DNA of 21,537 nucleotides, from positions 1-21,537 of the IMG/VR virus record IMGVR_UViG_648276671_000007. One strand, 5' to 3'. Both the position numbers and the translations under genes were made by a program. This document shows, in pieces, positions 792 to 20,990 of this stretch; position 1 is the first letter of the stretch, and every line of letters starts with the position of its first letter. The DNA comes from a virus. Its lineage: Duplodnaviria; Heunggongvirae; Uroviricota; Caudoviricetes. Below the pieces are notes generated by a model that was not told the origin of the DNA, ran no database searches, and worked only from the letters and a program-made list of their open reading frames with translations.

Positions 792-1880
792 TTAACCAAA
801 ATAATTGACGCCTTTTTTCTTGCCACTGGCTTTCCCCTTTGCAGAAATATCCGTGGCCAGCGACAAATTCAGCGTAAACCCCTGCCCCGGTGCCAGTGAA
901 AACGCCACCGACTCAGCCTGCCAGTAATGATCCTCACGCACACCAAATCCCTGCGTGATAAAACGCATTTCCGCCCCTGCTTTCAGCAGGGCCGGTCTGC
1001 AGGGCAGCGTTATCGTCATCTGGCGTCCGGCTTTCTGCACACGTTTAACCTTCGACTCTGCACAGTGTTTTGCCGTGCCCTGGTCAGGCTGGGTAAACGG
1101 ATGTCGTTTGTCTGTGGATTCAACATCCACTTTAACTTCACGCGTGCGTCCGTCACGGGCATCAAAATACCGGACACCCACTTTCCCGCTCTTTTTGTCC
1201 CCTTTTGCACCACCCGCAGCGCCCTGCCGCTCACCTTCACGATAATCCCAGTCTGATACCATTCCCGGCGTAATGGTTATCTCAGGTGCATTTCTGCCCC
1301 CTGCGCTCTGCGATGCCCCATATTCCAGAAACAACCAGTATCCACTGGTCGGTTTACTGGTGGCACCGTACATGCCCGCAATGCGGGACAGGAGGGCCGC
1401 ATCAGATTCTGACGACTGCATCACCCACGGAATATGAATATCTGCCAGCGCCGGTGAAACCCGCGCCACCAGATTATTTTCAGTGGCGATGGTTTTCACC
1501 AGATCGCCCAGCGTGATATCGCTGAAGTCCCGGGTTTTCAGAGCCGTAACATCTGCACCATGCCTGGACGCATTCATGGGGGCGGCTGTGGCATAAATGG
1601 TGATCCGGCGGGGAGGACCACCGCTTGCCACCTGGCAGACAGTAAAGCTGCCTTTATTGACCAGATTTCCGTTGAATCCCAGCCCCAGCGTTAACACCGA
1701 GCCTTTCGGTGGCAATGCCAGCGTCTCGCTGAACAGCGTTATCATCAGTTCATCGGATCGTTTTGTGGCGGCACCATTATCGGTATAACGCAGTTCAGCC
1801 AGCCCCCGCTTTATGGCCTTCGTGATATCCTCACCTTCCGCTGTCAGGCTGAAATCCGGCTGATATTCATTCAGTCCCAT
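792..1880 (-). CDS. D: P2 gpD-like tail protein
   Basis: 362-aa ORF; position at the end of the tail cluster after U and X, and similarity in pattern to remembered P2 gpD. Overlaps the upstream X gene by 10 nt. Confidence 0.8.
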   Translation of the reverse strand: MGLNEYQPDFSLTAEGEDITKAIKRGLAELRYTDNGAATKRSDELMITLFSETLALPPKGSVLTLGLGFNGNLVNKGSFTVCQVASGGPPRRITIYATAAPMNASRHGADVTALKTRDFSDITLGDLVKTIATENNLVARVSPALADIHIPWVMQSSESDAALLSRIAGMYGATSKPTSGYWLFLEYGASQSAGGRNAPEITITPGMVSDWDYREGERQGAAGGAKGDKKSGKVGVRYFDARDGRTREVKVDVESTDKRHPFTQPDQGTAKHCAESKVKRVQKAGRQMTITLPCRPALLKAGAEMRFITQGFGVREDHYWQAESVAFSLAPGQGFTLNLSLATDISAKGKASGKKKGVNYFG

Positions 1881-2089
1881 AACTGAAACGTCTCCTTTTC
1901 CTCCGGTTCATATGTCCAGTCCGGCAACACGATTTCCACGCCTGCCGGATAGACCGGGCCACGGTCAGCCAGCCCGGGATTGGCTTCCAGTACCGCCGCC
2001 AGTGACTGGTTAAGTCCGGCGCTGCCATAGTGTCTCTGACAGATGTCATCCAGCATATCGCCGTCAGTGGTCCGCCAGTTTTTCGCCAT
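1871..2089 (-). CDS. X: P2 gpX-like tail protein X (LysM-like)
   Basis: 72 aa; MAKNWRTTDGDMLDDICQRHYG...LEANPGLA...LPD resembles P2 gpX (MKTFALQGDTLDAICVRYYG...LAANPGLA). The U-X-D order matches R-type pyocin and P2-like tail clusters. Confidence 0.8.
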   Translation of the reverse strand: MAKNWRTTDGDMLDDICQRHYGSAGLNQSLAAVLEANPGLADRGPVYPAGVEIVLPDWTYEPEEKETFQLWD

Positions 2090-2558
2090 AGTATTTCAGC
2101 TCCAGTGTGAACGTTTTATTCTTCGGCGCACCGCCGGGAAGAAAGGACGTGGTGTTATCTGAATAGGCGGTCGCCACGAAATACCCCATCACATCACCAG
2201 TGCTCGAGACCAGAAGGTGCGGGGCCGGATTGTCATCCACCATCTGAACCAGTGAATTAAGGGCATCCATTCCCACACCGTCACGAAATCCTGCATGTAC
2301 CATACCGTCAAGGCTTATCGTTCTGGCGCTCTTGCCGGTATACTGCAGCAGGTCGTTCTTTCCGATAAGCTGCTGTTCGTCCCATCGCCATTCCATGGTG
2401 CGCTTCATGGCGTTATAGGCTGCCGTATCAATACTGAATTCAAACTCACCAAACGACAGCATGACGCGGGAAGCCACCTCCGTTAATGAGCCCACTGCGT
2501 CCCATGCTTCGCGCTCAAGCCGGTTTACGCCCCAGCCCAGTAAATCCACCATCTTCAC
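2064..2558 (-). CDS. U: P2 gpU-like tail protein
   Basis: 164 aa; sits between tape measure and X; C-terminal motif TFTLELKYYGE resembles the gpU family; ATGA overlap with the tape-measure stop. Confidence 0.7.
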   Translation of the reverse strand: MKMVDLLGWGVNRLEREAWDAVGSLTEVASRVMLSFGEFEFSIDTAAYNAMKRTMEWRWDEQQLIGKNDLLQYTGKSARTISLDGMVHAGFRDGVGMDALNSLVQMVDDNPAPHLLVSSTGDVMGYFVATAYSDNTTSFLPGGAPKNKTFTLELKYYGEKLADH

Positions 2559-4207
2559 CCCCAGGATTCATAACCATCAGTCATACGGGAACGCTGGCCA
2601 AAATTAATATCCCCCAGATTTTTCGTTACCCTGTCTGCCAGTTGTCCGGCATCCTCGCCGGGCTTCTGAGTGATGTTAAATTCCGCCCGTATCTGATATG
2701 TGGGTTTTACTTCCACCTGGCTGATACTGCCTGGTGTATACTGAAGAGCTGAGAGGGGATCCGAATTACCCTGCCCCGGATCTGCTGCATGAAGTCCATC
2801 AATGTAGGTGCGGGATTTCTCTTTTATCGCCTTAAAATCAGGTTCTTCTTTCGGCCCCAGCATAGGGTCGAGAAATGCATCAAACTTTTTATCGTCATGA
2901 TTCCAGGGGAGATAACTGCGCGTGTCTTTATAAGCCTGTACAACCTGTTTCGTCAGGTCCGGATTTTGCCTGAGCAGTTCATCAAACCATTCTCCCTGGC
3001 CGTTTTTCTGCGCCACCGCTCTCGCCAGCTCCGGTGACCCCATTTTTGCCAGATATTCCAGTACCTCTCGCCGGTCCTCTCGCGGACCATCTGCCAGCCC
3101 CCACTCAATGGCTTTCTGCGTTATTCCGGCAAGAACTTTTCCGAATTTCCACATCCATGCGATCATGTCGATCAGCGCCGGCAGGGCATCATCGCGGATA
3201 AATGCCCGGATTTTTTCCAGTCCACCATCCTTAAACCAGGCCGCAAGGTCATCCGTCACCTGTTGAATATGGGGTCCGAGCTCCTTCCCCAGTTGCCCGC
3301 TGATTTCATCAATGGAAGAGCTCAGAACATTACGGAGATTTGACAGCGCCATATGTCCCTGAACCGCGCCATCAGCCCCGGCCTTTGTCACCAGGTTATA
3401 GCGTTTTTGTTCGCTGATAAGCTCCCGGTAAGTTTTTCCTGACAGACGCATCCAGGTCAGAATTTTATTGGCTTCTCCACCAAACAGTGCATCTGCCATC
3501 CCCGCCGCCTGCTGCTCATCCTTTACCTGCAGTAAGCGATCAAACAAAAATTCGACCTGCTCCTGGTTGTTTTTTCCGGCCATTACACCCGCTTTCAGCC
3601 CCAGTTTGCCGAAAACATCCTGAATAGCCCCTTTATCTGATGCGCCATTGTCATCATCAAAAACCTTGTTCCGGTACTCCTCAAACAAATCACCAAAGTT
3701 TTCGCCGTTCAGCCCCATCTGTCGGCCCAGTGAATCCCACGCCACGTAGGTTTCATAGTCCACCCCGTAGCTCCGCGCTATCCCTGCCCGCTCTGCCGTT
3801 TCCGAATTCCGGTTCAGTACCGCGCTGGCACCTGCTGCCAGCATCATCCCGGAACCAACCGAAAGCCCGAGCCCGGTTTTAAGAACAGTCCCGGTCCGTC
3901 CTTTCCAGCGAGCCAGGCGCTCTGCCCGTTCAAGCTGGCGATTAAACCGCTCCTGCTCAGTTGCAGCATCATTGATTTTCCGCTTCAGCTTTTCATACCG
4001 CTTTCGCAGATCGGTAATATCCTGCCCGGCCAGCACGCCAGCCTGAATTTTTCGTTTCAGTACGTCCTGCTGACGCGTCAGGCGTGCCACTTCCCGTGTC
4101 GCACCAGCCAGACCTCGCTTCAGTCCCTCTGTCGATTTTTTCCACGACGGGTCAATGGTGCCACCGATCCGGATATTCGCTCTGAGCTTATCGCCGACCG
4201 TTGCCAT
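2555..4207 (-). CDS. T: Tail tape measure protein (550 aa)
   Basis: Long ORF directly downstream of the E/E' chaperone pair; Ala/Gly/Leu-rich central region typical of tape measure proteins; start overlaps the end of the predicted E' extension. Confidence 0.8.
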   Translation of the reverse strand: MATVGDKLRANIRIGGTIDPSWKKSTEGLKRGLAGATREVARLTRQQDVLKRKIQAGVLAGQDITDLRKRYEKLKRKINDAATEQERFNRQLERAERLARWKGRTGTVLKTGLGLSVGSGMMLAAGASAVLNRNSETAERAGIARSYGVDYETYVAWDSLGRQMGLNGENFGDLFEEYRNKVFDDDNGASDKGAIQDVFGKLGLKAGVMAGKNNQEQVEFLFDRLLQVKDEQQAAGMADALFGGEANKILTWMRLSGKTYRELISEQKRYNLVTKAGADGAVQGHMALSNLRNVLSSSIDEISGQLGKELGPHIQQVTDDLAAWFKDGGLEKIRAFIRDDALPALIDMIAWMWKFGKVLAGITQKAIEWGLADGPREDRREVLEYLAKMGSPELARAVAQKNGQGEWFDELLRQNPDLTKQVVQAYKDTRSYLPWNHDDKKFDAFLDPMLGPKEEPDFKAIKEKSRTYIDGLHAADPGQGNSDPLSALQYTPGSISQVEVKPTYQIRAEFNITQKPGEDAGQLADRVTKNLGDINFGQRSRMTDGYESWG

Positions 4208-4627
4208 AACACTGCTTCCTCTCTTCCGCCTCTGCCAGCATCATTGTCACAAAATCCTCATACGGCAGTGTCATCACATCTCCGGGTGACCACCCGAACC
4301 ATACTCCGGCACGCCGTATCGCCATCAGGATGTTTTCTTCTTCCGCCGGACCGGCGGCAGCAAAAAAACATTAAACTGCCGCTCCAGGGCCAGGTAATCA
4401 CACGCTTCCATGTTCATCATATCCGCCGCGTCCATCCCGCACAGACCGGCAATCATATCCAGATCGGCCTCAGCTTCCGGTTTGGTACTCCGCCGATGCA
4501 ACAGACGATCGCGGACGGTAGGCGCTCGCATGGTAACGTGCGTGATCGTCTGTCCTGATGCGGCGACATACGGCACGGATAACACAATTTCCACGCTGCT
4601 GGCAGGAACGCTGTTTTTTTCCGACAT
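4188..4627 (-). CDS. Predicted E+E' fusion product made by a -1 programmed frameshift at the slippery site 4361-4367
   Basis: mRNA reads AAU GUU UUU UUG CUG; heptamer U_UUU_UUG at 4367..4361. The -1 frame is open from the heptamer for about 56 codons (AAAGPAEEENILMAIRRAGVWFGW...NGRR) to a UAA at 4188-4190, overlapping the tape-measure start. Same topology as the P2 E/E' and lambda G/GT frameshifts. Confidence 0.6.
4325..4627 (-). CDS. E: P2 gpE-like tail assembly chaperone (zero-frame product)
   Basis: About 100 aa between tube and tape measure; ends ...NVFLLPPVRRKKKTS; contains the U_UUU_UUG slippery heptamer near its 3' end. Start preferred at ATG 4625-4627 (GGAG 6 nt upstream) rather than ATG 4631-4633. 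Confidence 0.7.
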   Translation of the reverse strand: MSEKNSVPASSVEIVLSVPYVAASGQTITHVTMRAPTVRDRLLHRRSTKPEAEADLDMIAGLCGMDAADMMNMEACDYLALERQFNVFLLPPVRRKKKTS

Positions 4628-4637
4628 AAGCATCTCC

Positions 4638-4667
4638 TTTAAAAAAGAAAAGGCGGCCAGAGCCGCC
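4638..4667 (-). terminator. Intrinsic terminator-like hairpin plus U-tract between the tube gene and the E chaperone gene
   Basis: Minus-strand sequence AGGCGGC-TCTG-GCCGCCT followed by TTTCTTTTTTAAA; lies between the tube stop (4688) and the E start. Confidence 0.55.
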
Positions 4668-4687
4668 TGAATGACAGGATCCCCGGA

Positions 4688-5206
4688 TTAAACCCGGATG
4701 ATTTTTTTCAGATCCGCCAGAACATTAACGCCGTTAATACGACGTACAAATTCCTCCGGAATAATGCAGATGGTTTCCACACCGTCGACAGTCTGACGGT
4801 AATAACTCAGCGACATTTCCACCGTCACCGAAGCCTCAGCCTGTGACGTTGCCGGGCGCGCATCCGGCGTGATACTGGTGATCATCCCCTGCAGGATTTC
4901 CACCTGTCCGCTGGTCGCATTCCCCACCTGATAACCCTGGCGGACAACAATCTCCGGCGAATAAAGTCCGGCCTGTAATCCCAGCAGCGTCAGCATGGCA
5001 ACATCGTAGCCATAAATTTTAAACGAGCAGGTCAGCGCTTCCATACCGTCATCCACTGCCACTGGTGCATCCATTGCGCCGGTTTTGATATCCACTGTCG
5101 TGATATTAATGGCAGGCGGCGTGTATTCATGCGCCCCCTGAAGACGGATCCCGCCAGGAAGAAATAACGCCCATGCGCGCAACAGTTTTTTTTCACCCGT
5201 AATCAT
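4688..5206 (-). CDS. FII: Contractile-tail tube protein (P2 gpFII-like)
   Basis: 172 aa immediately downstream of the sheath gene with ATGA overlap; size and position as for P2 FII. Confidence 0.8.
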   Translation of the reverse strand: MITGEKKLLRAWALFLPGGIRLQGAHEYTPPAINITTVDIKTGAMDAPVAVDDGMEALTCSFKIYGYDVAMLTLLGLQAGLYSPEIVVRQGYQVGNATSGQVEILQGMITSITPDARPATSQAEASVTVEMSLSYYRQTVDGVETICIIPEEFVRRINGVNVLADLKKIIRV

Positions 5207-6678
5207 ACCGTCAGTTCCTCCAGCGCCAGTTTATTGTTAATCATTGCCCGCAGTGTCAGGCGCTCCAGTGGTGACTTCGGCCCAAAGTCATAATCGATAT
5301 ACAACTGCCCTGCCGCCAGGGTTTCTGCTGTATTCAGTTCATCATTCAGCCAGGCGCTGCCACCGTGGATCGCACCCAGATTTTTAAGCTGACGCATATA
5401 GGCATTAATGCTGCCAAGAATGTCGTCTGCCACATCCCGATCAAGCGGGCGATCGACATAAGGCAACATGGCCTCCTGGATACTGTCCTCAATCACATCT
5501 GCAGTGCGACGTACCGACTCAAAGCGCCACTGACTGTGGGATGAGCACAGACGGTTACCCCAGTGTTTAAAACCGTCATGGCGAATAATGGTGGAGATGT
5601 TTTCCATGTTCAGCAGGTTTGCCGTGCAGTTCTGCTCCCCGAGAATAAACGTATCCACCTGCTCCAGACCGGTGATATTCATCACGTCCTGGTTTGATTT
5701 GGACCACCACCACCCTTTTTCATAATCAATACGGGCACGCAGCCCGGCAGCACGAGCCGAATATGGACGAAATACCGTTTGCCCGCTGTCATCCGTCACT
5801 GACACGCGCGGACGCAGCAGCTCCACACGCCCGCCAAATGACGCGCGCCGCTGAACCACATCCTGCGACGTTGACATTGAGGGCGAGTCAATATAGGCCA
5901 CAGCACGCAACTTCGCGGCATACGTTTCCAGCGCCTTTGCCACGCCATCATCCTCACTGTACCCCGTGGCAATGAGGATGCGCGGTTGATAGCCTGTCAC
6001 GCCCTTACTTTCTGTCAGCGCCTCCATGGCCTGAATCACCGCCGCACGCTGTTCGCCCTCTTTCGCCTTTGTTTTACTTTCTGCGCGCACCACAATCACC
6101 AGCGCACCAGTCTGGTCAAAAATATCACGCAGGGCCGGGTATAATGTTCCGGCGGTGCCCAGTTTCCCTGCCTGAGTAATGGCCCCTGCCACCACCACCG
6201 GTGTATTGACCGGGAACGCCTCATCTTCTCCGCCGGATAACGTCAGGCTGAACGGCGACACCACTTTATTTTCAGCGCCTCCTGCATTCAGAGTGCTGAC
6301 CGCCGCCGTCACAGGCGAATCCCCCAGCGCATTCACCACTTCAGTCACACGGTCAGCCGTGGCGTTAATCTGGCTGTGTTCGTCCGTCCCCAGCGTTATC
6401 GTCAGGGTTGTGCCTTTCAGCGATGCCGCTGTCTGCGCGTTTTGTTCTGTGGCAGCCACGGCAACAACCGAAATCTTATTACCGACCCGACCTTCCTGTT
6501 TCGCCGTGAAATCCAGCGCCGTTCCCAGCAGCCAGGAGCCGGCTGTGCCGGAAGCGCACACGCCACCAGAGGCGTATGGCGCTGTCCCCACCAGGCCAAT
6601 CACTGCCGTGGAGATGGTCTGCACGGCAACCGTGCCTGTCGTCAGTTCAATGGTTTCAACACCATGTAGTCCGGACAT
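5203..6678 (-). CDS. FI: Contractile-tail sheath protein (P2 gpFI-like)
   Basis: Start chosen at ATG 6676-6678 (MSGLHGVETIELTTGTVAVQTISTAVIGLVGTA), with GGGAGA SD upstream; matches the P2 FI N-terminus ([34 protein letters not shown]) and C-terminus (LYIDYDFGPKSPLERLTLR versus LYIDYDYTPVPPLENLTLR). The 541-aa ORF in the track carries an unsupported 50-aa N-terminal extension. Confidence 0.9.
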   Translation of the reverse strand: MSGLHGVETIELTTGTVAVQTISTAVIGLVGTAPYASGGVCASGTAGSWLLGTALDFTAKQEGRVGNKISVVAVAATEQNAQTAASLKGTTLTITLGTDEHSQINATADRVTEVVNALGDSPVTAAVSTLNAGGAENKVVSPFSLTLSGGEDEAFPVNTPVVVAGAITQAGKLGTAGTLYPALRDIFDQTGALVIVVRAESKTKAKEGEQRAAVIQAMEALTESKGVTGYQPRILIATGYSEDDGVAKALETYAAKLRAVAYIDSPSMSTSQDVVQRRASFGGRVELLRPRVSVTDDSGQTVFRPYSARAAGLRARIDYEKGWWWSKSNQDVMNITGLEQVDTFILGEQNCTANLLNMENISTIIRHDGFKHWGNRLCSSHSQWRFESVRRTADVIEDSIQEAMLPYVDRPLDRDVADDILGSINAYMRQLKNLGAIHGGSAWLNDELNTAETLAAGQLYIDYDFGPKSPLERLTLRAMINNKLALEELTV

Positions 6679-6691
6679 ACATTTCTCCCAT

Positions 6692-6714
6692 AAAAAAACC
6701 GCCCTTAAGGCGGT
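6692..6714 (-). terminator. Intrinsic terminator-like hairpin plus U-tract between tfa and the sheath gene
   Basis: Minus strand ACCGCC-TTAAG-GGCGGT followed by TTTTTTT, in the 55-bp gap between the tfa stop (6734) and the sheath start (6678). Confidence 0.55.
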
Positions 6715-6733
6715 CTGTTGATTAACTTCTTTT

Positions 6734-7264
6734 TCAGGTGTTCTGTGGAGGTGCTGGCCACTCAATGGCGTTATAAGACGATTCATCAGTAACCTGACTG
6801 AAATCAAGCGATTTAAGTGCCCTGGCATAAAGCAGCCATGCCTTCAATTGTTCTTTGTCATCATCACTGATAATTTCAAGAATCAATTCAGCCTTCCAGT
6901 CAGAAGTGATATCTGCAGCACGGGAATACAACCAACGTCGATGCTCTTCTGCTTTCTGCTGATAATTGACAGACTTAGGCACAATCTTTCCATCAATATA
7001 CAACCAGTTTCCATCAATTGACATCTCTGCAGGAACTGCACTGACTGCAACTTCAGCCACACTCGCGTTAACAGGAAACAAGGAGGAAACATCCTGACTA
7101 AAACTGATAATTACATTACTGTTGTCATAAACGACTTTAACCGTATCAGGAGAAAATAATTTCTGACATTCATACCAGTCCTGTCCGTCTTCAGACATAA
7201 GGTAAGATGCATTTACGAGCATGTTTTCTGGTGTGTAAGGTTTAAAACTCTTAATATTCAGCAT
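6734..7264 (-). CDS. Tail fibre assembly protein (Tfa / P2 gpG-like), copy 2
   Basis: 176 aa; ...YTPENM...SEDGQDWYE...PDTVKVVYDNSNVI...IEWPAPP resembles P2 gpG ([30 protein letters not shown]...EWPEMP). Confidence 0.8.
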   Translation of the reverse strand: MLNIKSFKPYTPENMLVNASYLMSEDGQDWYECQKLFSPDTVKVVYDNSNVIISFSQDVSSLFPVNASVAEVAVSAVPAEMSIDGNWLYIDGKIVPKSVNYQQKAEEHRRWLYSRAADITSDWKAELILEIISDDDKEQLKAWLLYARALKSLDFSQVTDESSYNAIEWPAPPQNT

Positions 7265-7281
7265 ATTTTACCTTTTGATAT

Positions 7282-7812
7282 TTAATGTGAATTCTCAGGA
7301 TCACAAGGCCATTTAATACTATCAAATGACGATTTATCATGAATGTGATTAAAATCAATATTCTTTAAATTTCTGATGTACATCCGCCATAATTTCAGCA
7401 TTTCTTTTTCCCCATTATTAATTATTCCCAGAAGTAAATCTGTTTTCTTGTCGGATATTTCCCGTTCAGCAATCGCCGTAAGACGTGCTCGTTCCGACTC
7501 AGCCAGCAGTCTGTAATCAACAGGAACCGGCAGTACTTCACCGTCTTTATAATACCAGCGCGCCTCTATACAAAAGCCATCCGGTAGTTCATCCACTTCC
7601 ACAATGGTGAAACCTGCCGGATAAAGCCGGGATACGTCTTCCGCCATTGAATAAATAACACCGGTTTCAGGATGCGTGCACAGCTTGTATTTCTTCGCGA
7701 ATTTATCCAGTGATTCATAAAAATCCTGCCCGTCTTCACTACGGAAATACTGAACACCTTCACCATAAGGCATGTTTTCCGGGTAATAACGCGTGACATT
7801 TCTGAGTTCCAT
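7282..7812 (-). CDS. Tail fibre assembly protein (Tfa-like), copy 1
   Basis: Paralogous to the neighbouring tfa (YYPENMPYG...SEDGQDFYE...IKWPCDP). Start preferred at the internal Met (MELRNVTRYYPENM) at 7812 rather than the ORF-track start at 7848. Confidence 0.75.
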   Translation of the reverse strand: MELRNVTRYYPENMPYGEGVQYFRSEDGQDFYESLDKFAKKYKLCTHPETGVIYSMAEDVSRLYPAGFTIVEVDELPDGFCIEARWYYKDGEVLPVPVDYRLLAESERARLTAIAEREISDKKTDLLLGIINNGEKEMLKLWRMYIRNLKNIDFNHIHDKSSFDSIKWPCDPENSH

Positions 7813-7826
7813 TATTTTTGCCTTAA

Positions 7827-16582: not shown

Positions 16583-18143
16583 CGCCTTTTTCTCCCGTTG
16601 TCTGTCGGATCTGCTGCTGAAACGTGTCCTTTATCCAGATGGGGCGCGGAAGACCCGCGGCCTGTCGCTCCTGACTTTCACGCAGTTGCTGGCGGAAAAT
16701 CTCCTGATAGTCATCGCCCATCAGGGCCAGCTCCTTCTCGTACGTGCTCAGGCCACCTTCAATACGCATCACCGCTTCCTGTACTTCCTTGAGACCATCA
16801 ATCGCCATGCGACCGGCACCAATCCACTCGGCACGGCACCATCCGGAACGGGCCTCCCAGAATGAGAAACGGGATTTCGGCGGGCGGATCACACCGCGAA
16901 TAAGGGCTTCCTCCAGCCAGCAGGCAAACATCTGTGATGCCAGTCGGCTGGCCACAAATTTTCGTTTGCCCATAAAATACCGCCACGACTCATTGGCGGA
17001 TGCCCTGGCACTGGAATAACTGACCTGTGAATAATCACGGGAAAGCTGTTCATAGGACACGCCCAGTCCGGCTGCGATGTAGCGTAACAGCGCTTTTTCC
17101 AGTTCAGAGAACCCATTATCCGCATTCTGCGCTGTCTGCAGATTCAGTGAATCCCCCGGATAAAGGTGTGGAATACGGACCCCGCCCAGCTTTACCGTAT
17201 TGGTGGCGTAATAACGCGCGTAGCCTTTCATGATGGTGTTCAGGGGATTTTTACCGCCATCTCCCACCCCGGCGATATATTCAAATGCTTTTTCCGAATC
17301 CAGTGTGGATTCAATCGTCGCGGCATACATTGCGCGCACCACCGCCGACTGCAGTTGCGTGGCCTGCAGTGTGTCGAGCATCTTGAGGCGCTCCATGACA
17401 GAATAAAACTGGTTGGCCCCGCGCGTCTGTCCGTCCTCCTGCGGCTGAAACACATGGATCATGCCCGGTCGCCCGGAGGGCAGCGTCGCCGCAATCCGCG
17501 TCCAGTTGCTGACACCGTAACCGGGCCAGTCATCTTCCTGAACATGGTAAGCCAGCGCTTTTCCGTACCGGTTGATTTCCACCCCGGCACGCATAAAACG
17601 ATCGCCAGTACCATAACCGGGTGTACTGACACGTTTCGGGCTGATGGTCTTGAATTTCGTCCGGAATAATGACGTGGACTCTGCATCCCAAACGGGCTGG
17701 ACAAAAACTTCACCGTTAAACGTATGAACGCCCACCCCTTCACGAATGAATTCGGTAAACGAACGACGCCCTTCCACATCCATCGTGCCAAACACCGGAT
17801 CGCAGAATTCCATCCACGCCGCCTCAACATCTTCAATAAAGGCATGTGAATCGGCTTCCGACATTCCCAGCCAGCGCCAGTTGGGCCGGTAACTCAGACG
17901 AAACATGTGTCCGACGATATGGTCTTTATGAATTTCCACCGCATTTGCGGCAATACCATTATTGCGGACCAGATCATCCGCACGGGCGTTACCCAGTTGA
18001 ATGGAAGGCAGTAGCGCCACATCGGCACTTTCCGGCGCGGGCAGCCATTCCGCAAGTTGCCCGCCAAATCCGGTACCACCTCCGGAATATCCCATACTCT
18101 GCCGCAGTGGCTGACCGTGCAGATCCACCAGTTCCCCGTTCAC
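16572..18143 (-). CDS. B: Portal protein, lambda gpB-like
   Basis: 523 aa; ...GGGTGFGGQL...ALLPSIQLGNARADDLVRNNGIAANAV...LRYIAAGLGVSYEQLSRDYSQVSYSSARASANESW...GRMAIDGLKEVQEAVM matches lambda gpB. Confidence 0.95.
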   Translation of the reverse strand: MNGELVDLHGQPLRQSMGYSGGGTGFGGQLAEWLPAPESADVALLPSIQLGNARADDLVRNNGIAANAVEIHKDHIVGHMFRLSYRPNWRWLGMSEADSHAFIEDVEAAWMEFCDPVFGTMDVEGRRSFTEFIREGVGVHTFNGEVFVQPVWDAESTSLFRTKFKTISPKRVSTPGYGTGDRFMRAGVEINRYGKALAYHVQEDDWPGYGVSNWTRIAATLPSGRPGMIHVFQPQEDGQTRGANQFYSVMERLKMLDTLQATQLQSAVVRAMYAATIESTLDSEKAFEYIAGVGDGGKNPLNTIMKGYARYYATNTVKLGGVRIPHLYPGDSLNLQTAQNADNGFSELEKALLRYIAAGLGVSYEQLSRDYSQVSYSSARASANESWRYFMGKRKFVASRLASQMFACWLEEALIRGVIRPPKSRFSFWEARSGWCRAEWIGAGRMAIDGLKEVQEAVMRIEGGLSTYEKELALMGDDYQEIFRQQLRESQERQAAGLPRPIWIKDTFQQQIRQTTGEKGDAS

Positions 18144-18349
18144 AACCCCACTCCTGCCGGGCCGCGACGCCGTCCGGATACGCCCAGCGCACTTTCCAGC
18201 TCGTCAATATACTGACGCAGTTCGCCAATCGTCGCCCGCGAATACTGAACCTGACGCCCGTCCTTGCTGACGGAAACCACAGCACGTCCGATCATCAGTT
18301 CATGTAATGCCCGGCGGGCATCACAAAGCATTTCATGCGTATAAACCAT
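18140..18349 (-). CDS. W: Head-tail joining protein, lambda gpW-like
   Basis: 69 aa; ...ARRALHELMIGRAVVSVSKDGRQVQYSRATIGELRQYIDELE...RRRGPAG matches lambda gpW ([27 protein letters not shown]...RRRGPAG). Confidence 0.9.
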   Translation of the reverse strand: MVYTHEMLCDARRALHELMIGRAVVSVSKDGRQVQYSRATIGELRQYIDELESALGVSGRRRGPAGVGL

Positions 18350-18352
18350 CTT

Positions 18353-20269
18353 TTATCCTCCACTCAGTGCAGCCGCGATTTCTTCCAGACTCATCTCATC
18401 GTCGTCCTGCTCATCTCTTCTGGCACGGGCCAGTGCTTCAAGATCAAGCTGCCACCGCTGAACTGAAATACGCAGGGCAGCATAGGCATATACCAGGCAG
18501 TCGAGGGCTTCGTTGCGTCGCCCTTTTTTATCCCACAGCAGTTTCACCCTGCCATTAACCACCTTCTCCACCAGTTCTTCCGCCACAATCTGACGCGCCT
18601 CTTCTTCCGAAAAAATGTCGGGATTATCCGGAAAACGGAAGGTATACGGGGCGGCTTCACTGGCAGAGGCCACCGGCAGGGCAAAACGGGCATACAGCAT
18701 TTCCTTGACGGTATCGGAGCCCACCTCACACAAAAACACACCACGCTGGTTGCGCTTTTTGGGCATGGTGATCACCGGCTTGCCGTACACCGATGCTCCT
18801 TTTATGGGAAGCACAAAAAAAGTGCCGTGTTTTCTGGAACGCTGATACACAATGTCCTGGTCAATACCGCCGGTATCCCAGCAGACGCGGGAAATGGAAA
18901 TTTCAGTACCGTCAGCATGGCTGTATTTTTTCCGGATCACCGCATCAACACGTTTAAGGGTGTCCTCGTCTTCCGGTCGCCCCATGATAATTTGCTTATC
19001 AATCAGAAAGGCTTCTTCGCCTGGAGCCCAGCCCCACACATAAATTTCATAGCGATCTTTCTGGGAGTCGATCCCGGCAGTCAGGTAAACCACCCGCAGG
19101 GGAACCTGCGCGCCATAGTGGCAGACTTTTTCCAGCAACAACTCAAAGCTCAGTTTTTCTGCCACGGCCTCTTCATAGGGCTCCCCGAGCGTGGTGTTAA
19201 TGAATGTCTTGACGCCGTTCGGATCCTTTAGTGCATCCAGCCAGTCATAAACAATCTGCACCCAGGTGGTGAACGGACTGTACGCTGTCCACACGTGGTA
19301 CGTGATTGAGCGCGGTGGCGGCATCTCCTCATCACCGGCGCTGTAAAATGCCAGGCCGTCGCGCGTCCACATCCCGGTATTGTCACAAATCCAGCGTCCG
19401 TCGGTCTGGTCAAGTTCCGACTGGCGGATCACACAGCCATTATGTTCACACAGGTAATACACCGTTTCCGGTTTACCCTTCTCCCATTTCAGGCCAGACG
19501 GCGTCGCATCATCACCAAACTTCAGATACTGAGCCTCCCCGCAATGAGGGCAAGGGACATAAAACCGCATGAAATGCGCAGATTCATTCGCGGCTTTCTC
19601 AATCTGACAGGAACCTTTGATTTTTGGCGTTGAGCCGCGTATGGATTTAGGCCATACCGAACCTTCGATACGTTTATCACCAAGCAGCGTCGGCGAACCT
19701 TCTTTTTCCACATCCGGTTCAAACGAGGAGAGTTCGTCATAGCAGACCACATCCACAGATTTTTCACGGTAGTTTTTAGCAGCGGCACCGCCCAGGCACC
19801 AGAAACCCACACCGGAGGAAAAACGCTTCAGGGTGAGTGTATTATCGCGGTGTTTTCTGCCCAGCCATGGAGACAACGCTTTAAGGCAGGGGACATCCCG
19901 CAATGTTGCTTCCACATGTGCTTTCATAAAATCTTCAGCTGCAGAATCTGTCGGCTGAAAAAGCAGACTGTTACGGGATTTATGCTCAATAAAATACCCG
20001 ACCACGCCCAGCAGCATTTTGGTATAACCCACGCGCGCTGATTTAATCAGATTAACAGTGCGGATCCGGTCATTACCCATGCTGTTCATGATGGCAACCT
20101 GAAACGGCAGGGTCTTCCACTCTCCATCACCGTATGACGACTCTTTAGGCAGATAATAATTTTGATCAGCCCATTCAACCGGCGTCACCGGCAATGCCCT
20201 TATCAGTGGCTGCAATGCGGCTGTGACGGCGATCATCATATTATTCAGTTGTAGTTCGGATATATTCAT
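18353..20269 (-). CDS. A: Terminase large subunit, lambda gpA-like
   Basis: Start preferred at the internal MNISELQL... (ATG ending at 20269), matching lambda A MNISNSQVN...; long collinear similarity (TPVEWADQNYYLPKESSYGDGEWKTLPFQ..., RVGYTKMLLGV..., DKRIEGSVWPKSIRGSTPK..., CPHCGEAQYLKFGD...). Overlaps the 3' end of Nu1 by about 29 nt, as in lambda. Confidence 0.95.
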   Translation of the reverse strand: MNISELQLNNMMIAVTAALQPLIRALPVTPVEWADQNYYLPKESSYGDGEWKTLPFQVAIMNSMGNDRIRTVNLIKSARVGYTKMLLGVVGYFIEHKSRNSLLFQPTDSAAEDFMKAHVEATLRDVPCLKALSPWLGRKHRDNTLTLKRFSSGVGFWCLGGAAAKNYREKSVDVVCYDELSSFEPDVEKEGSPTLLGDKRIEGSVWPKSIRGSTPKIKGSCQIEKAANESAHFMRFYVPCPHCGEAQYLKFGDDATPSGLKWEKGKPETVYYLCEHNGCVIRQSELDQTDGRWICDNTGMWTRDGLAFYSAGDEEMPPPRSITYHVWTAYSPFTTWVQIVYDWLDALKDPNGVKTFINTTLGEPYEEAVAEKLSFELLLEKVCHYGAQVPLRVVYLTAGIDSQKDRYEIYVWGWAPGEEAFLIDKQIIMGRPEDEDTLKRVDAVIRKKYSHADGTEISISRVCWDTGGIDQDIVYQRSRKHGTFFVLPIKGASVYGKPVITMPKKRNQRGVFLCEVGSDTVKEMLYARFALPVASASEAAPYTFRFPDNPDIFSEEEARQIVAEELVEKVVNGRVKLLWDKKGRRNEALDCLVYAYAALRISVQRWQLDLEALARARRDEQDDDEMSLEEIAAALSGG

Positions 20270-20747
20270 TGAGTAACTCCGGCAATTTATCCCCTGTCCG
20301 CGCACACTGATTCGCTCCCTTTGCGATAAGGGTTTTCAGATAATCAATATGACGCGGCGTTAAATCCGGGAACTGTCGCTGCATGGATAAAGGAATGGAA
20401 TCAAGCGTACTGGACAACGCCATTGCCAGTTTGCTGAGAGCGAAAACGCAGAACGCTGAATCGATGAGCTTACCTTCGGTTACCTGATTTTTAAGTTTTT
20501 GAGCTACGGCCTGTTCTTCCGTCAGTTCAGCTCTGGCCCGGAGTAATCTTTCCTCCAGATCGCTCCCGTCATCAGGTGCTCTCTGATTGTGTTGCCGTCG
20601 CTCGCGATCGATTTCCAGTACGGTTTTAACGTCATAAAAAACTTCCCTCCCCCGACGCTCAACAGGAGGAACGCCCCATTTATCAAATGCCTGAACGGAT
20701 ATACCGATGGAGGAGGCCATATCGCTTTTATTCAATAAACAGGCCAT
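20241..20747 (-). CDS. nu1: Terminase small subunit, lambda gpNu1-like
   Basis: Start preferred at ATG 20745-20747 (MACLLNKSDMASSIGISVQAFDKWG..., like lambda Nu1 MEVNKKQLADIFGASIRTIQNWQ) with GGAGAGGAG directly upstream. The ORF-track start at 20786 is a TTG. Confidence 0.85.
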   Translation of the reverse strand: MACLLNKSDMASSIGISVQAFDKWGVPPVERRGREVFYDVKTVLEIDRERRQHNQRAPDDGSDLEERLLRARAELTEEQAVAQKLKNQVTEGKLIDSAFCVFALSKLAMALSSTLDSIPLSMQRQFPDLTPRHIDYLKTLIAKGANQCARTGDKLPELLNEYIRTTTE

Positions 20748-20779
20748 CTCCTCTCCATAAGCCATCGATAAAAAGTGAT

Positions 20780-20990
20780 ACAACAACCTTGTATTTTTAC
20801 TAAACCATTTGATTTAATTAATGTTTTTAGCATCAACCACATCAAAAAGCATCATCAGGTTGTTGTATTTATTTCTCTTTCTTCTTAATTATCAATGAGG
20901 TACGACAAACAATTAAACAACAACCCCCCCTCAAAAAATCTCATAAATAGCGCGTTTTTGCGCGTCTACAGACCCCCGGTGTTTCAGATT
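20780..20990 (-). other. Putative cos region (cosN/cosB-like) upstream of Nu1
   Basis: Minus strand reads ...ACACCGGGGGTCTGTAGACGCGCAAAAACGCGCTATTTATGAGATTTTTTGAGGGGGGG..., resembling the lambda cos junction ...ACGGGGCGGCGACCTCGCGGGTTTTCGCTATTTATGAAAATTTTCC.... A 10-bp inverted repeat ACAACAACCT (20780-20789) / AGGTTGTTGT (20858-20867) lies between it and the Nu1 start, where lambda has Nu1-binding R sites. Confidence 0.5.

Follow-up and report, generated by a model that had tools for sequence, protein, structure and literature searches.

A predicted -1 frameshift joining the E and E' tail assembly chaperone sequences in a prophage lineage with a P2-type contractile tail module

Does the tail assembly chaperone gene of this element give rise to one protein or to two? 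The question is raised by a short gene, which we call E, in the IMG/VR virus record IMGVR_UViG_648276671_000007 (Caudoviricetes); the whole stretch of 21,537 nucleotides that we analyzed is referred to here as the window. A preliminary description of this DNA, made from its letters alone, proposed that a -1 programmed frameshift at a heptamer U_UUU_UUG near the end of E produces a longer protein, E+E', in addition to E. All features of the E/E' region are read on the minus strand. Our analysis leads to the view that the locus very probably encodes an E and E+E' chaperone pair, belonging to a P2-type contractile tail module and expressed via -1 programmed ribosomal frameshifting.

The identification of E as an E-like chaperone, made in the preliminary description, is borne out. 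The protein matches the Pfam family PF10109 (Phage_TAC_7; E 2.2e-13, 50.5 bits against a cutoff of 25, profile positions 2-78 of 79), which is described as "tail assembly chaperone proteins E, 41 or 14", and it also matches phrog_166, a tail protein. The gene lies between the tube and tape-measure genes. Its longest open reading frame (ORF) extends from ATG 4633, the mechanical start, to the TGA at 4327..4325. The real start is probably ATG 4627, because a GGAG (4637..4634) stands 6 nucleotides ahead of this ATG and 0 nucleotides ahead of ATG 4633, because E homologues begin MSEKNS, and because the gene annotated by the Prokaryotic Genome Annotation Pipeline (PGAP) in Escherichia coli relatives, as a "phage tail assembly protein", is 303 nucleotides long. 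With this start, E occupies 4325..4627 and encodes 100 amino acids, followed by the TGA stop.

Towards its 3' end, E reads ...CAG TTT AAT GTT TTT TTG CTG CCG CCG GTC CGG CGG AAG AAG AAA ACA TCC TGA. The slippery heptamer T_TTT_TTG (U_UUU_UUG in RNA; 4361..4367), the proposed slip site, is positioned in the E frame in the X_XXY_YYZ register, as T4367, TTT 4366..4364 and TTG 4363..4361, and it forms part of a run of seven T at 4368..4362. After the TTG come 11 sense codons and then the E stop, in agreement with the twelve codons originally counted. A TAA (4371..4373) directly 5' of the heptamer closes the -1 frame, which is open from 4370 only; a shift into E' must therefore fall within 4370..4328. 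The heptamer is the sole canonical slippery site within that stretch, and is located at its very start. The first post-slip codon is GCT (4361..4359). From there, the E' extension (4188..4361) comprises 57 codons (AAAGPAEEENILMAIRRAGVWFGWSPGDVMTLPYEDFVTMMLAEAEERKQCYGNGRR), where about 56 had been estimated, and a TAA at 4190..4188, which lies 20 nucleotides inside the tape-measure gene T (ATG 4207), as had been anticipated. The predicted E+E' protein thus has 146 amino acids, of which 89 come from E (ATG 4627 through the Leu of TTG) and 57 from E', and a ribosomal slip would give the junction peptide ...QFNVFLAAAGPAEEENILMAIR, with Leu at the junction (NVFLAAAG).

Among the 20 in-frame X_XXY_YYZ heptamers found in the 23 minus-strand ORFs of the window, this one has the longest -1 extension, and the -1 frame is open for at least 57 codons at only 4.8% of the codon positions in those ORFs. 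The position of the heptamer, taken together with the frame, is therefore modestly unlikely by chance, and the main support for its function comes from context and comparison.

If the site operates as proposed, most ribosomes would read E (4627..4325) to its TGA and produce the 100-amino-acid chaperone. A minority would slip back by one base with tRNA-Phe on UUU (4366..4364) and tRNA-Leu on UUG (4363..4361), the two tRNAs re-pairing on U_UU and U_UU. These ribosomes would go on to read GCU at 4361 and 56 more codons up to the UAA at 4190..4188, just within the tape-measure gene, and the resulting E+E' protein of 146 amino acids would combine the N-terminus of E with a different C-terminal domain. 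By analogy with gpG and gpGT of phage lambda (PMC5009743), the shared E part may bind the tape-measure protein while the E' domain may recruit the tube protein, and a fixed ratio of E and E+E' would support tail assembly. That the slip occurs, how efficient it is and what each product does are in this sense what we infer.

The preliminary description made its proposal depend on conservation of the -1-frame extension in related phages. We find the extension to be conserved: 26 relatives exhibit selection in the -1 frame, and the extension is retained in sequences with 55% amino acid identity in E. The comparative test used an alignment of 26 distinct sequences of the E-E' region. Upstream of the heptamer, the numbers of variable sites at the first, second and third codon positions of the E frame are 17, 8 and 58. 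After the E stop, in 4324..4191, the corresponding numbers for the -1 frame are 8, 9 and 25, and this concentration in third positions indicates that the -1 frame codes for protein here. The pattern is pronounced in codons 14-29 of E' (4322..4275), where the numbers are 1, 2 and 13. E' is, on the evidence of these substitutions, under purifying selection in the -1 frame. The heptamer itself is invariant in all 26 sequences, while 58 of the 86 third positions in the rest of E vary, and the stretch 4372..4341 has two variable sites only, at 4360 and 4348.

No start codon for E' is conserved. In the window, an ATG in the -1 frame (4323..4325) overlaps the E stop as TGATG (4327..4323), and is a possible start of a 45-amino-acid E' peptide. 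The codon is ATG in 8 of the 26 relatives and ACG or ACA in the remaining 18; in the Trabulsiella guamensis sequence considered below it is CTG. The 18 relatives have no ATG, GTG or TTG in the -1 frame before codon 29 of E', and the conserved sequence AIRRAGxWFGWSPGD can therefore be reached in them only by ribosomes coming from E. A search of 1.84 billion representative proteins with E' found 9 matches only; E' is thus rarely callable as an ORF of its own, although this observation adds little.

Two more divergent sequences, L034 from IMG/VR and L040 from Trabulsiella guamensis, are those with 55% amino acid identity in E. They keep TTTTTTG, in this case preceded by C, so that the run is T6, and they have an E' of 55 codons. 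In these sequences, the shift site is the best-conserved 21-nucleotide stretch of the region (20 of 21 positions, as compared to 57% overall).

The claim that the window has the conserved frameshift arrangement of tail chaperones seems justified from a comparison with P2, since the heptamer and its register are identical to the annotated -1 site of that phage. The coding sequence of P2 E+E' is given in two pieces in the record of that phage, which places a "-1 translational frameshift" at the G of GGT TTT TTG. The predicted fusion aligns collinearly with P2 E+E', and the junctions coincide, with VFL before and AAAG after the junction in the window and GFL and VAEL in P2, although the identity to P2 E+E' is only about 21%. 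A comparison of the -1 extension to P2 E' had been suggested in the preliminary description, and we conducted it with profiles. A profile of 10 aligned E' relatives, with P2 excluded, was compared to P2 E' using hhalign, which gave a probability of 94.8% (E 5.2e-8, 36 columns), with the F-x-W-x-P-S-E-L core aligned. At this profile level, the E' of the window is homologous to P2 E'. Other searches gave no matches of interest: NCBIfam has nothing for the E' of the window, a PDB sequence search with E' gave chance-level matches only, and Rfam has no family in 3900-4900.

It is important to consider several observations that weigh against the frameshift proposal. The bare sequence TTTTTTG is no rarer than expected by chance, with 4 occurrences in the window versus 4.87 expected from shuffles. 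The ATG that overlaps the E stop in the window itself could allow some independent synthesis of E'. In a pairwise BLASTP comparison, the similarity to P2 E+E' is not significant (E 0.84). The E' of the window has no match to any Pfam family, including PF06528 (Phage_P2_GpE), even at E <= 10; the only sequence that scores with PF06528 is the E'-like sequence of phage PhiKM, which is below threshold (E 0.007, 16.2 bits, cutoff 23). Finally, the phages yong2 and Chris1 keep an E' in the -1 frame without a canonical heptamer, having GTT TTT ATG where the window has GTT TTT TTG, and the heptamer is therefore not strictly required across the wider family.

An alternative source of a fusion protein would be transcriptional slippage, in which RNA polymerase adds one U on the T7 run (4368..4362), such that the fusion has Phe at the junction (...NVFFAAAG...). 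It is consistent with this idea that the run is T7, and not merely T6, in the window and in its 26 close relatives, and that the length of the run differs between database sequences, in that a protein variant designated P0003, described further below, reads as one T shorter. However, E. coli RNA polymerase usually slips efficiently only on runs of approximately 9 or more. L034, L040 and P2 moreover have only T6 (GCTTTTTTG, GGTTTTTTG) and keep the arrangement, so the conserved unit is the heptamer and not a longer run. Distant relatives use the non-homopolymeric sites G_GGA_AAG and G_GGT_TTT, which point to ribosomal slippage. We thus consider transcriptional slippage very improbable. A different possibility dispenses with any frameshift: E' could be a separate small gene, translated by reinitiation at TGATG (4327..4323) into a free 45-amino-acid peptide. 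This is how PGAP views the E. coli relatives, for which it calls a 45-amino-acid hypothetical protein, and an ATG that overlaps a stop codon (4325..4323) is a common layout for translational coupling; moreover, a few such short ORFs do exist in protein databases. Yet the codon is ATG in so few of the relatives, and is CTG in L040, while codons 14-29 are strongly selected in the whole set. Moreover, ATG 4325 is not preceded by a well-spaced Shine-Dalgarno sequence, and the 9 matches among the 1.84 billion representatives also count against an E' that is callable alone. That E' is solely a separate gene is therefore very improbable, but independent initiation could take place alongside frameshifting in this particular sequence.

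It might also be argued that the heptamer and the open -1 frame are functionless, whether as a chance arrangement or as part of a decaying prophage. The chance-level frequency of the bare heptamer would fit this argument, as would the fact that the element is known only as a prophage, without a close isolated phage in the phage collection. The codon-position pattern in the -1 frame, the invariant heptamer, the homology of E' to P2 E' and the intact tail and head ORFs are difficult to reconcile with it, and we regard a functionless arrangement as extremely improbable.

Given that -1 ribosomal frameshifting at the heptamer is the reading that we prefer, we also considered elements in its vicinity that might stimulate it. 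In the minimum-free-energy fold, a GC-rich hairpin, CCGCCG-GUC-CGGCGG (4343..4357), begins 3 nucleotides after the heptamer, and the hairpin region has a z-score of -2.44 for an 83-nucleotide stretch. A stem of 5-6 base pairs is retained in the diverged relatives L034, L031 and L029, with changed loops. On the other side, a Shine-Dalgarno-like GGAG (4382..4385) is located 14 nucleotides 5' of the heptamer; it is invariant in the 26 relatives and present at the same distance in L040. The GGAG at 4385..4382 also encodes Leu-Glu, however, and its conservation may reflect coding alone. Because both elements lie in coding or dual-coding sequence, conservation of the hairpin and of the GGAG is not independent evidence for their function. 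Stimulators of the dnaX type consist of a Shine-Dalgarno-like element approximately 10-14 nucleotides 5' of the site and a stable hairpin approximately 5-9 nucleotides 3' of it. In the window, the GGAG is 14 nucleotides upstream, and the 6-base-pair GC hairpin begins only 3 nucleotides downstream, which is closer than classical stimulators. P2-like phages have been reported to lack such stimulatory structures (PMC3091744). The hairpin and the GGAG are thus possible stimulators to which we attach little weight. A more elaborate hypothesis is that sequences with ATG 4325 make E' both within the fusion and, by termination-reinitiation, as a free 45-amino-acid peptide, and that, separately, the hairpin and the GGAG are dnaX-like stimulators. 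We think this hypothesis unlikely; if it is true, the free E' peptide alongside the fusion would provide a second control on chaperone stoichiometry.

Some additional reading frames and sites were encountered in this work. In P0003 (122 amino acids, 25 member sequences, E. coli), E continues in the +1 frame after ..NVF, as it would if the T7 run had lost one T. This variant could result from a homopolymer sequencing error or be a real length variant of the slippery run. A +1-frame ORF at 4258..4401 was rejected as a candidate, because it is present in this one database variant only and the substitution pattern follows the -1 frame. The idea that E' is an N-terminal extension of T was also rejected, as E' is not read in the frame of T and stops at 4188. 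Elsewhere on the minus strand, an in-frame A_AAG_GGG occurs at 840, near the end of the gpD-like ORF (792-1880), where it is 13 codons before the stop and followed by an open -1 frame of 32 codons. This occurrence is probably due to chance.

Judged by their sequences and order, the genes surrounding E, all of them on the minus strand, make up a contractile tail module of the P2 type. They are arranged as sheath (5203-6828), tube, E, T, U, X, D, which matches the FETUD operon of P2, and the annotation of E. coli relatives shows this arrangement too. Directly upstream of E is the FII-like tail tube gene (4688..5206; PF04985 Phage_tube, E 6.5e-24). The tape-measure gene T (2555..4207) encodes 550 amino acids from ATG 4207 and was recognized through phrog_3654 (E 4e-209) and weaker matches to tape-measure PHROGs, by the name "phage tail tape measure protein" that PGAP gives to the product in the relative L002, and by its location between E/E' and gpU (2064-2558). 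The gpX-like ORF (1871-2089) was assigned by position, and its counterpart in L001 and L002 is annotated as "tail protein X"; the gpD-like ORF follows. As to the sheath, the mechanical ORF has 541 amino acids and overlaps the upstream tail-fibre-assembly gene, whereas the protein annotated in E. coli relatives has 491, so that translation probably begins about 50 codons inside this ORF. There are two successive tail-fibre-assembly genes (6734-7264 and 7282-7848, minus strand), both matching Pfam Caudo_TAP, downstream of the tail fibre gene (7827-9083). The gap between the tube gene and E contains a hairpin resembling an intrinsic terminator (4641..4668, minus strand), AGGCGGC-TCTG-GCCGCCT followed by TTTCTTTTTT. 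With this hairpin in place, the chaperone and tape-measure genes might be transcribed less than the sheath and tube genes; the sequence of the hairpin is not conserved in the Trabulsiella relative.

Upstream of the tail module are baseplate and fibre genes, and then a lambda-type head module with Nu1, the gpA terminase, a lambda-family portal, an S49 protease and capsid protein E. The element is thus a mosaic of a lambda-type packaging and head module (13633-20786) and a contractile tail and baseplate of the P2 type (792-10908), and the ORFs of the entire tail and head module are intact. Of 5,426 complete E. coli genomes, 74 carry the same element as a prophage, with 80-99% DNA identity (at most 95.4% among the matches listed), and it is also found in IMG/VR contigs. 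A protein homologue search with E recovered close relatives only, and a scan of genome contigs found one locus, that of Trabulsiella guamensis. A megablast search with the E-T region gave no DNA-level match among deposited phages; the nearest of these are Citrobacter phage Chris1 and Hafnia phage yong2, with approximately 40% amino acid identity in E and T.

The main value of these results lies in annotation. PGAP lists E' in the E. coli relatives L001 (3974-4111) and L002 (3971-4108) as a separate 45-amino-acid "hypothetical protein" (WP_156841731.1), so that in this prophage lineage E' is labelled as an unrelated hypothetical protein and not as a chaperone frameshift extension. A correctly joined E+E' annotation would improve calls of prophage completeness and add a divergent branch, missed by Pfam PF06528, to the E' family. 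The frameshift itself is a well-known phage trick and not a new mechanism, and our understanding of frameshifting or of tail assembly is unchanged.

How the locus relates to known systems is clearest for P2. In P2, slipping at TTTTTTG leads to E of 91 amino acids and E+E' of 142 amino acids (PMC3091744), sizes similar to the 100 and 146 amino acids of the window. Both have this heptamer, in an identical register, close to the 3' end of E; the E proteins are homologous and belong to one Pfam family, PF10109; and E is flanked in both by the genes for the tube (FII) and the tape measure (T). In both cases the E' ORF overlaps the last part of E on one side and the first part of T on the other. The two systems also differ: eleven sense codons of E follow the site in the window versus six in P2, E' overlaps T by 20 nucleotides versus 8, the run is T7 versus T6, and the tape measure has 550 amino acids versus 815 (computed from the P2 T coordinates). 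Unlike in P2, the tail module of the window is joined to a head module of the lambda type.

The lambda gpG/gpGT system follows the same logic, with a chaperone gene just upstream of the tape-measure gene. In lambda, a longer protein is made in minor amounts by a -1 slip near the end of G, and tail assembly depends on the ratio of the two products (PMC5009743). However, lambda uses G_GGA_AAG where the window has T_TTT_TTG, and its tail is non-contractile. A Pfam scan detected no sequence similarity of the window's E to gpG/gpGT, PF10109 being the sole match, and so the likeness to lambda is one of arrangement and presumed role only. Closer in its predicted site is the P2-like phage Smp131, where a T7G sequence as in the window was predicted for orf27/orf27.1 (PMC3931495). 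Smp131 is a true P2-like phage with a Stenotrophomonas host, and is likened here by description, not by sequence.

In the wider family, the E' domain occurs behind a variety of sites. Phages yong2 and Chris1 have the gene order of the window, with homologous E, E' and T and with E' in the -1 frame. In these phages (L037 and L038) and in L051-L063, at about 40% identity, GTT TTT ATG is present and no canonical X_XXY_YYZ is available, so a single-tRNA slip on U_UUU or some other route may be used; vB_EcoM-569R10 likewise lacks a canonical heptamer, and its E' is in the -1 frame. In Vibrio phage Valp1, the E' domain lies behind G_GGT_TTT, and in the IMG/VR loci L042-L050 it lies behind G_GGA_AAG, the heptamer of lambda. 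In the BcepMu-like Escherichia phage PhiKM (L035) and Klebsiella phage KP12 (L036), tblastn located the E' part in a second frame, and the E'-like domain (..LLARWFRFQPGEIDAL..) is in the +1 frame relative to the E homologue. Because the E' domain is found behind such varied recoding sites, the conserved unit is the pair of domains joined by recoding, while the site varies, which is also the picture given in the literature (PMC5009743; PMC3091744, citing Xu et al. 2004).

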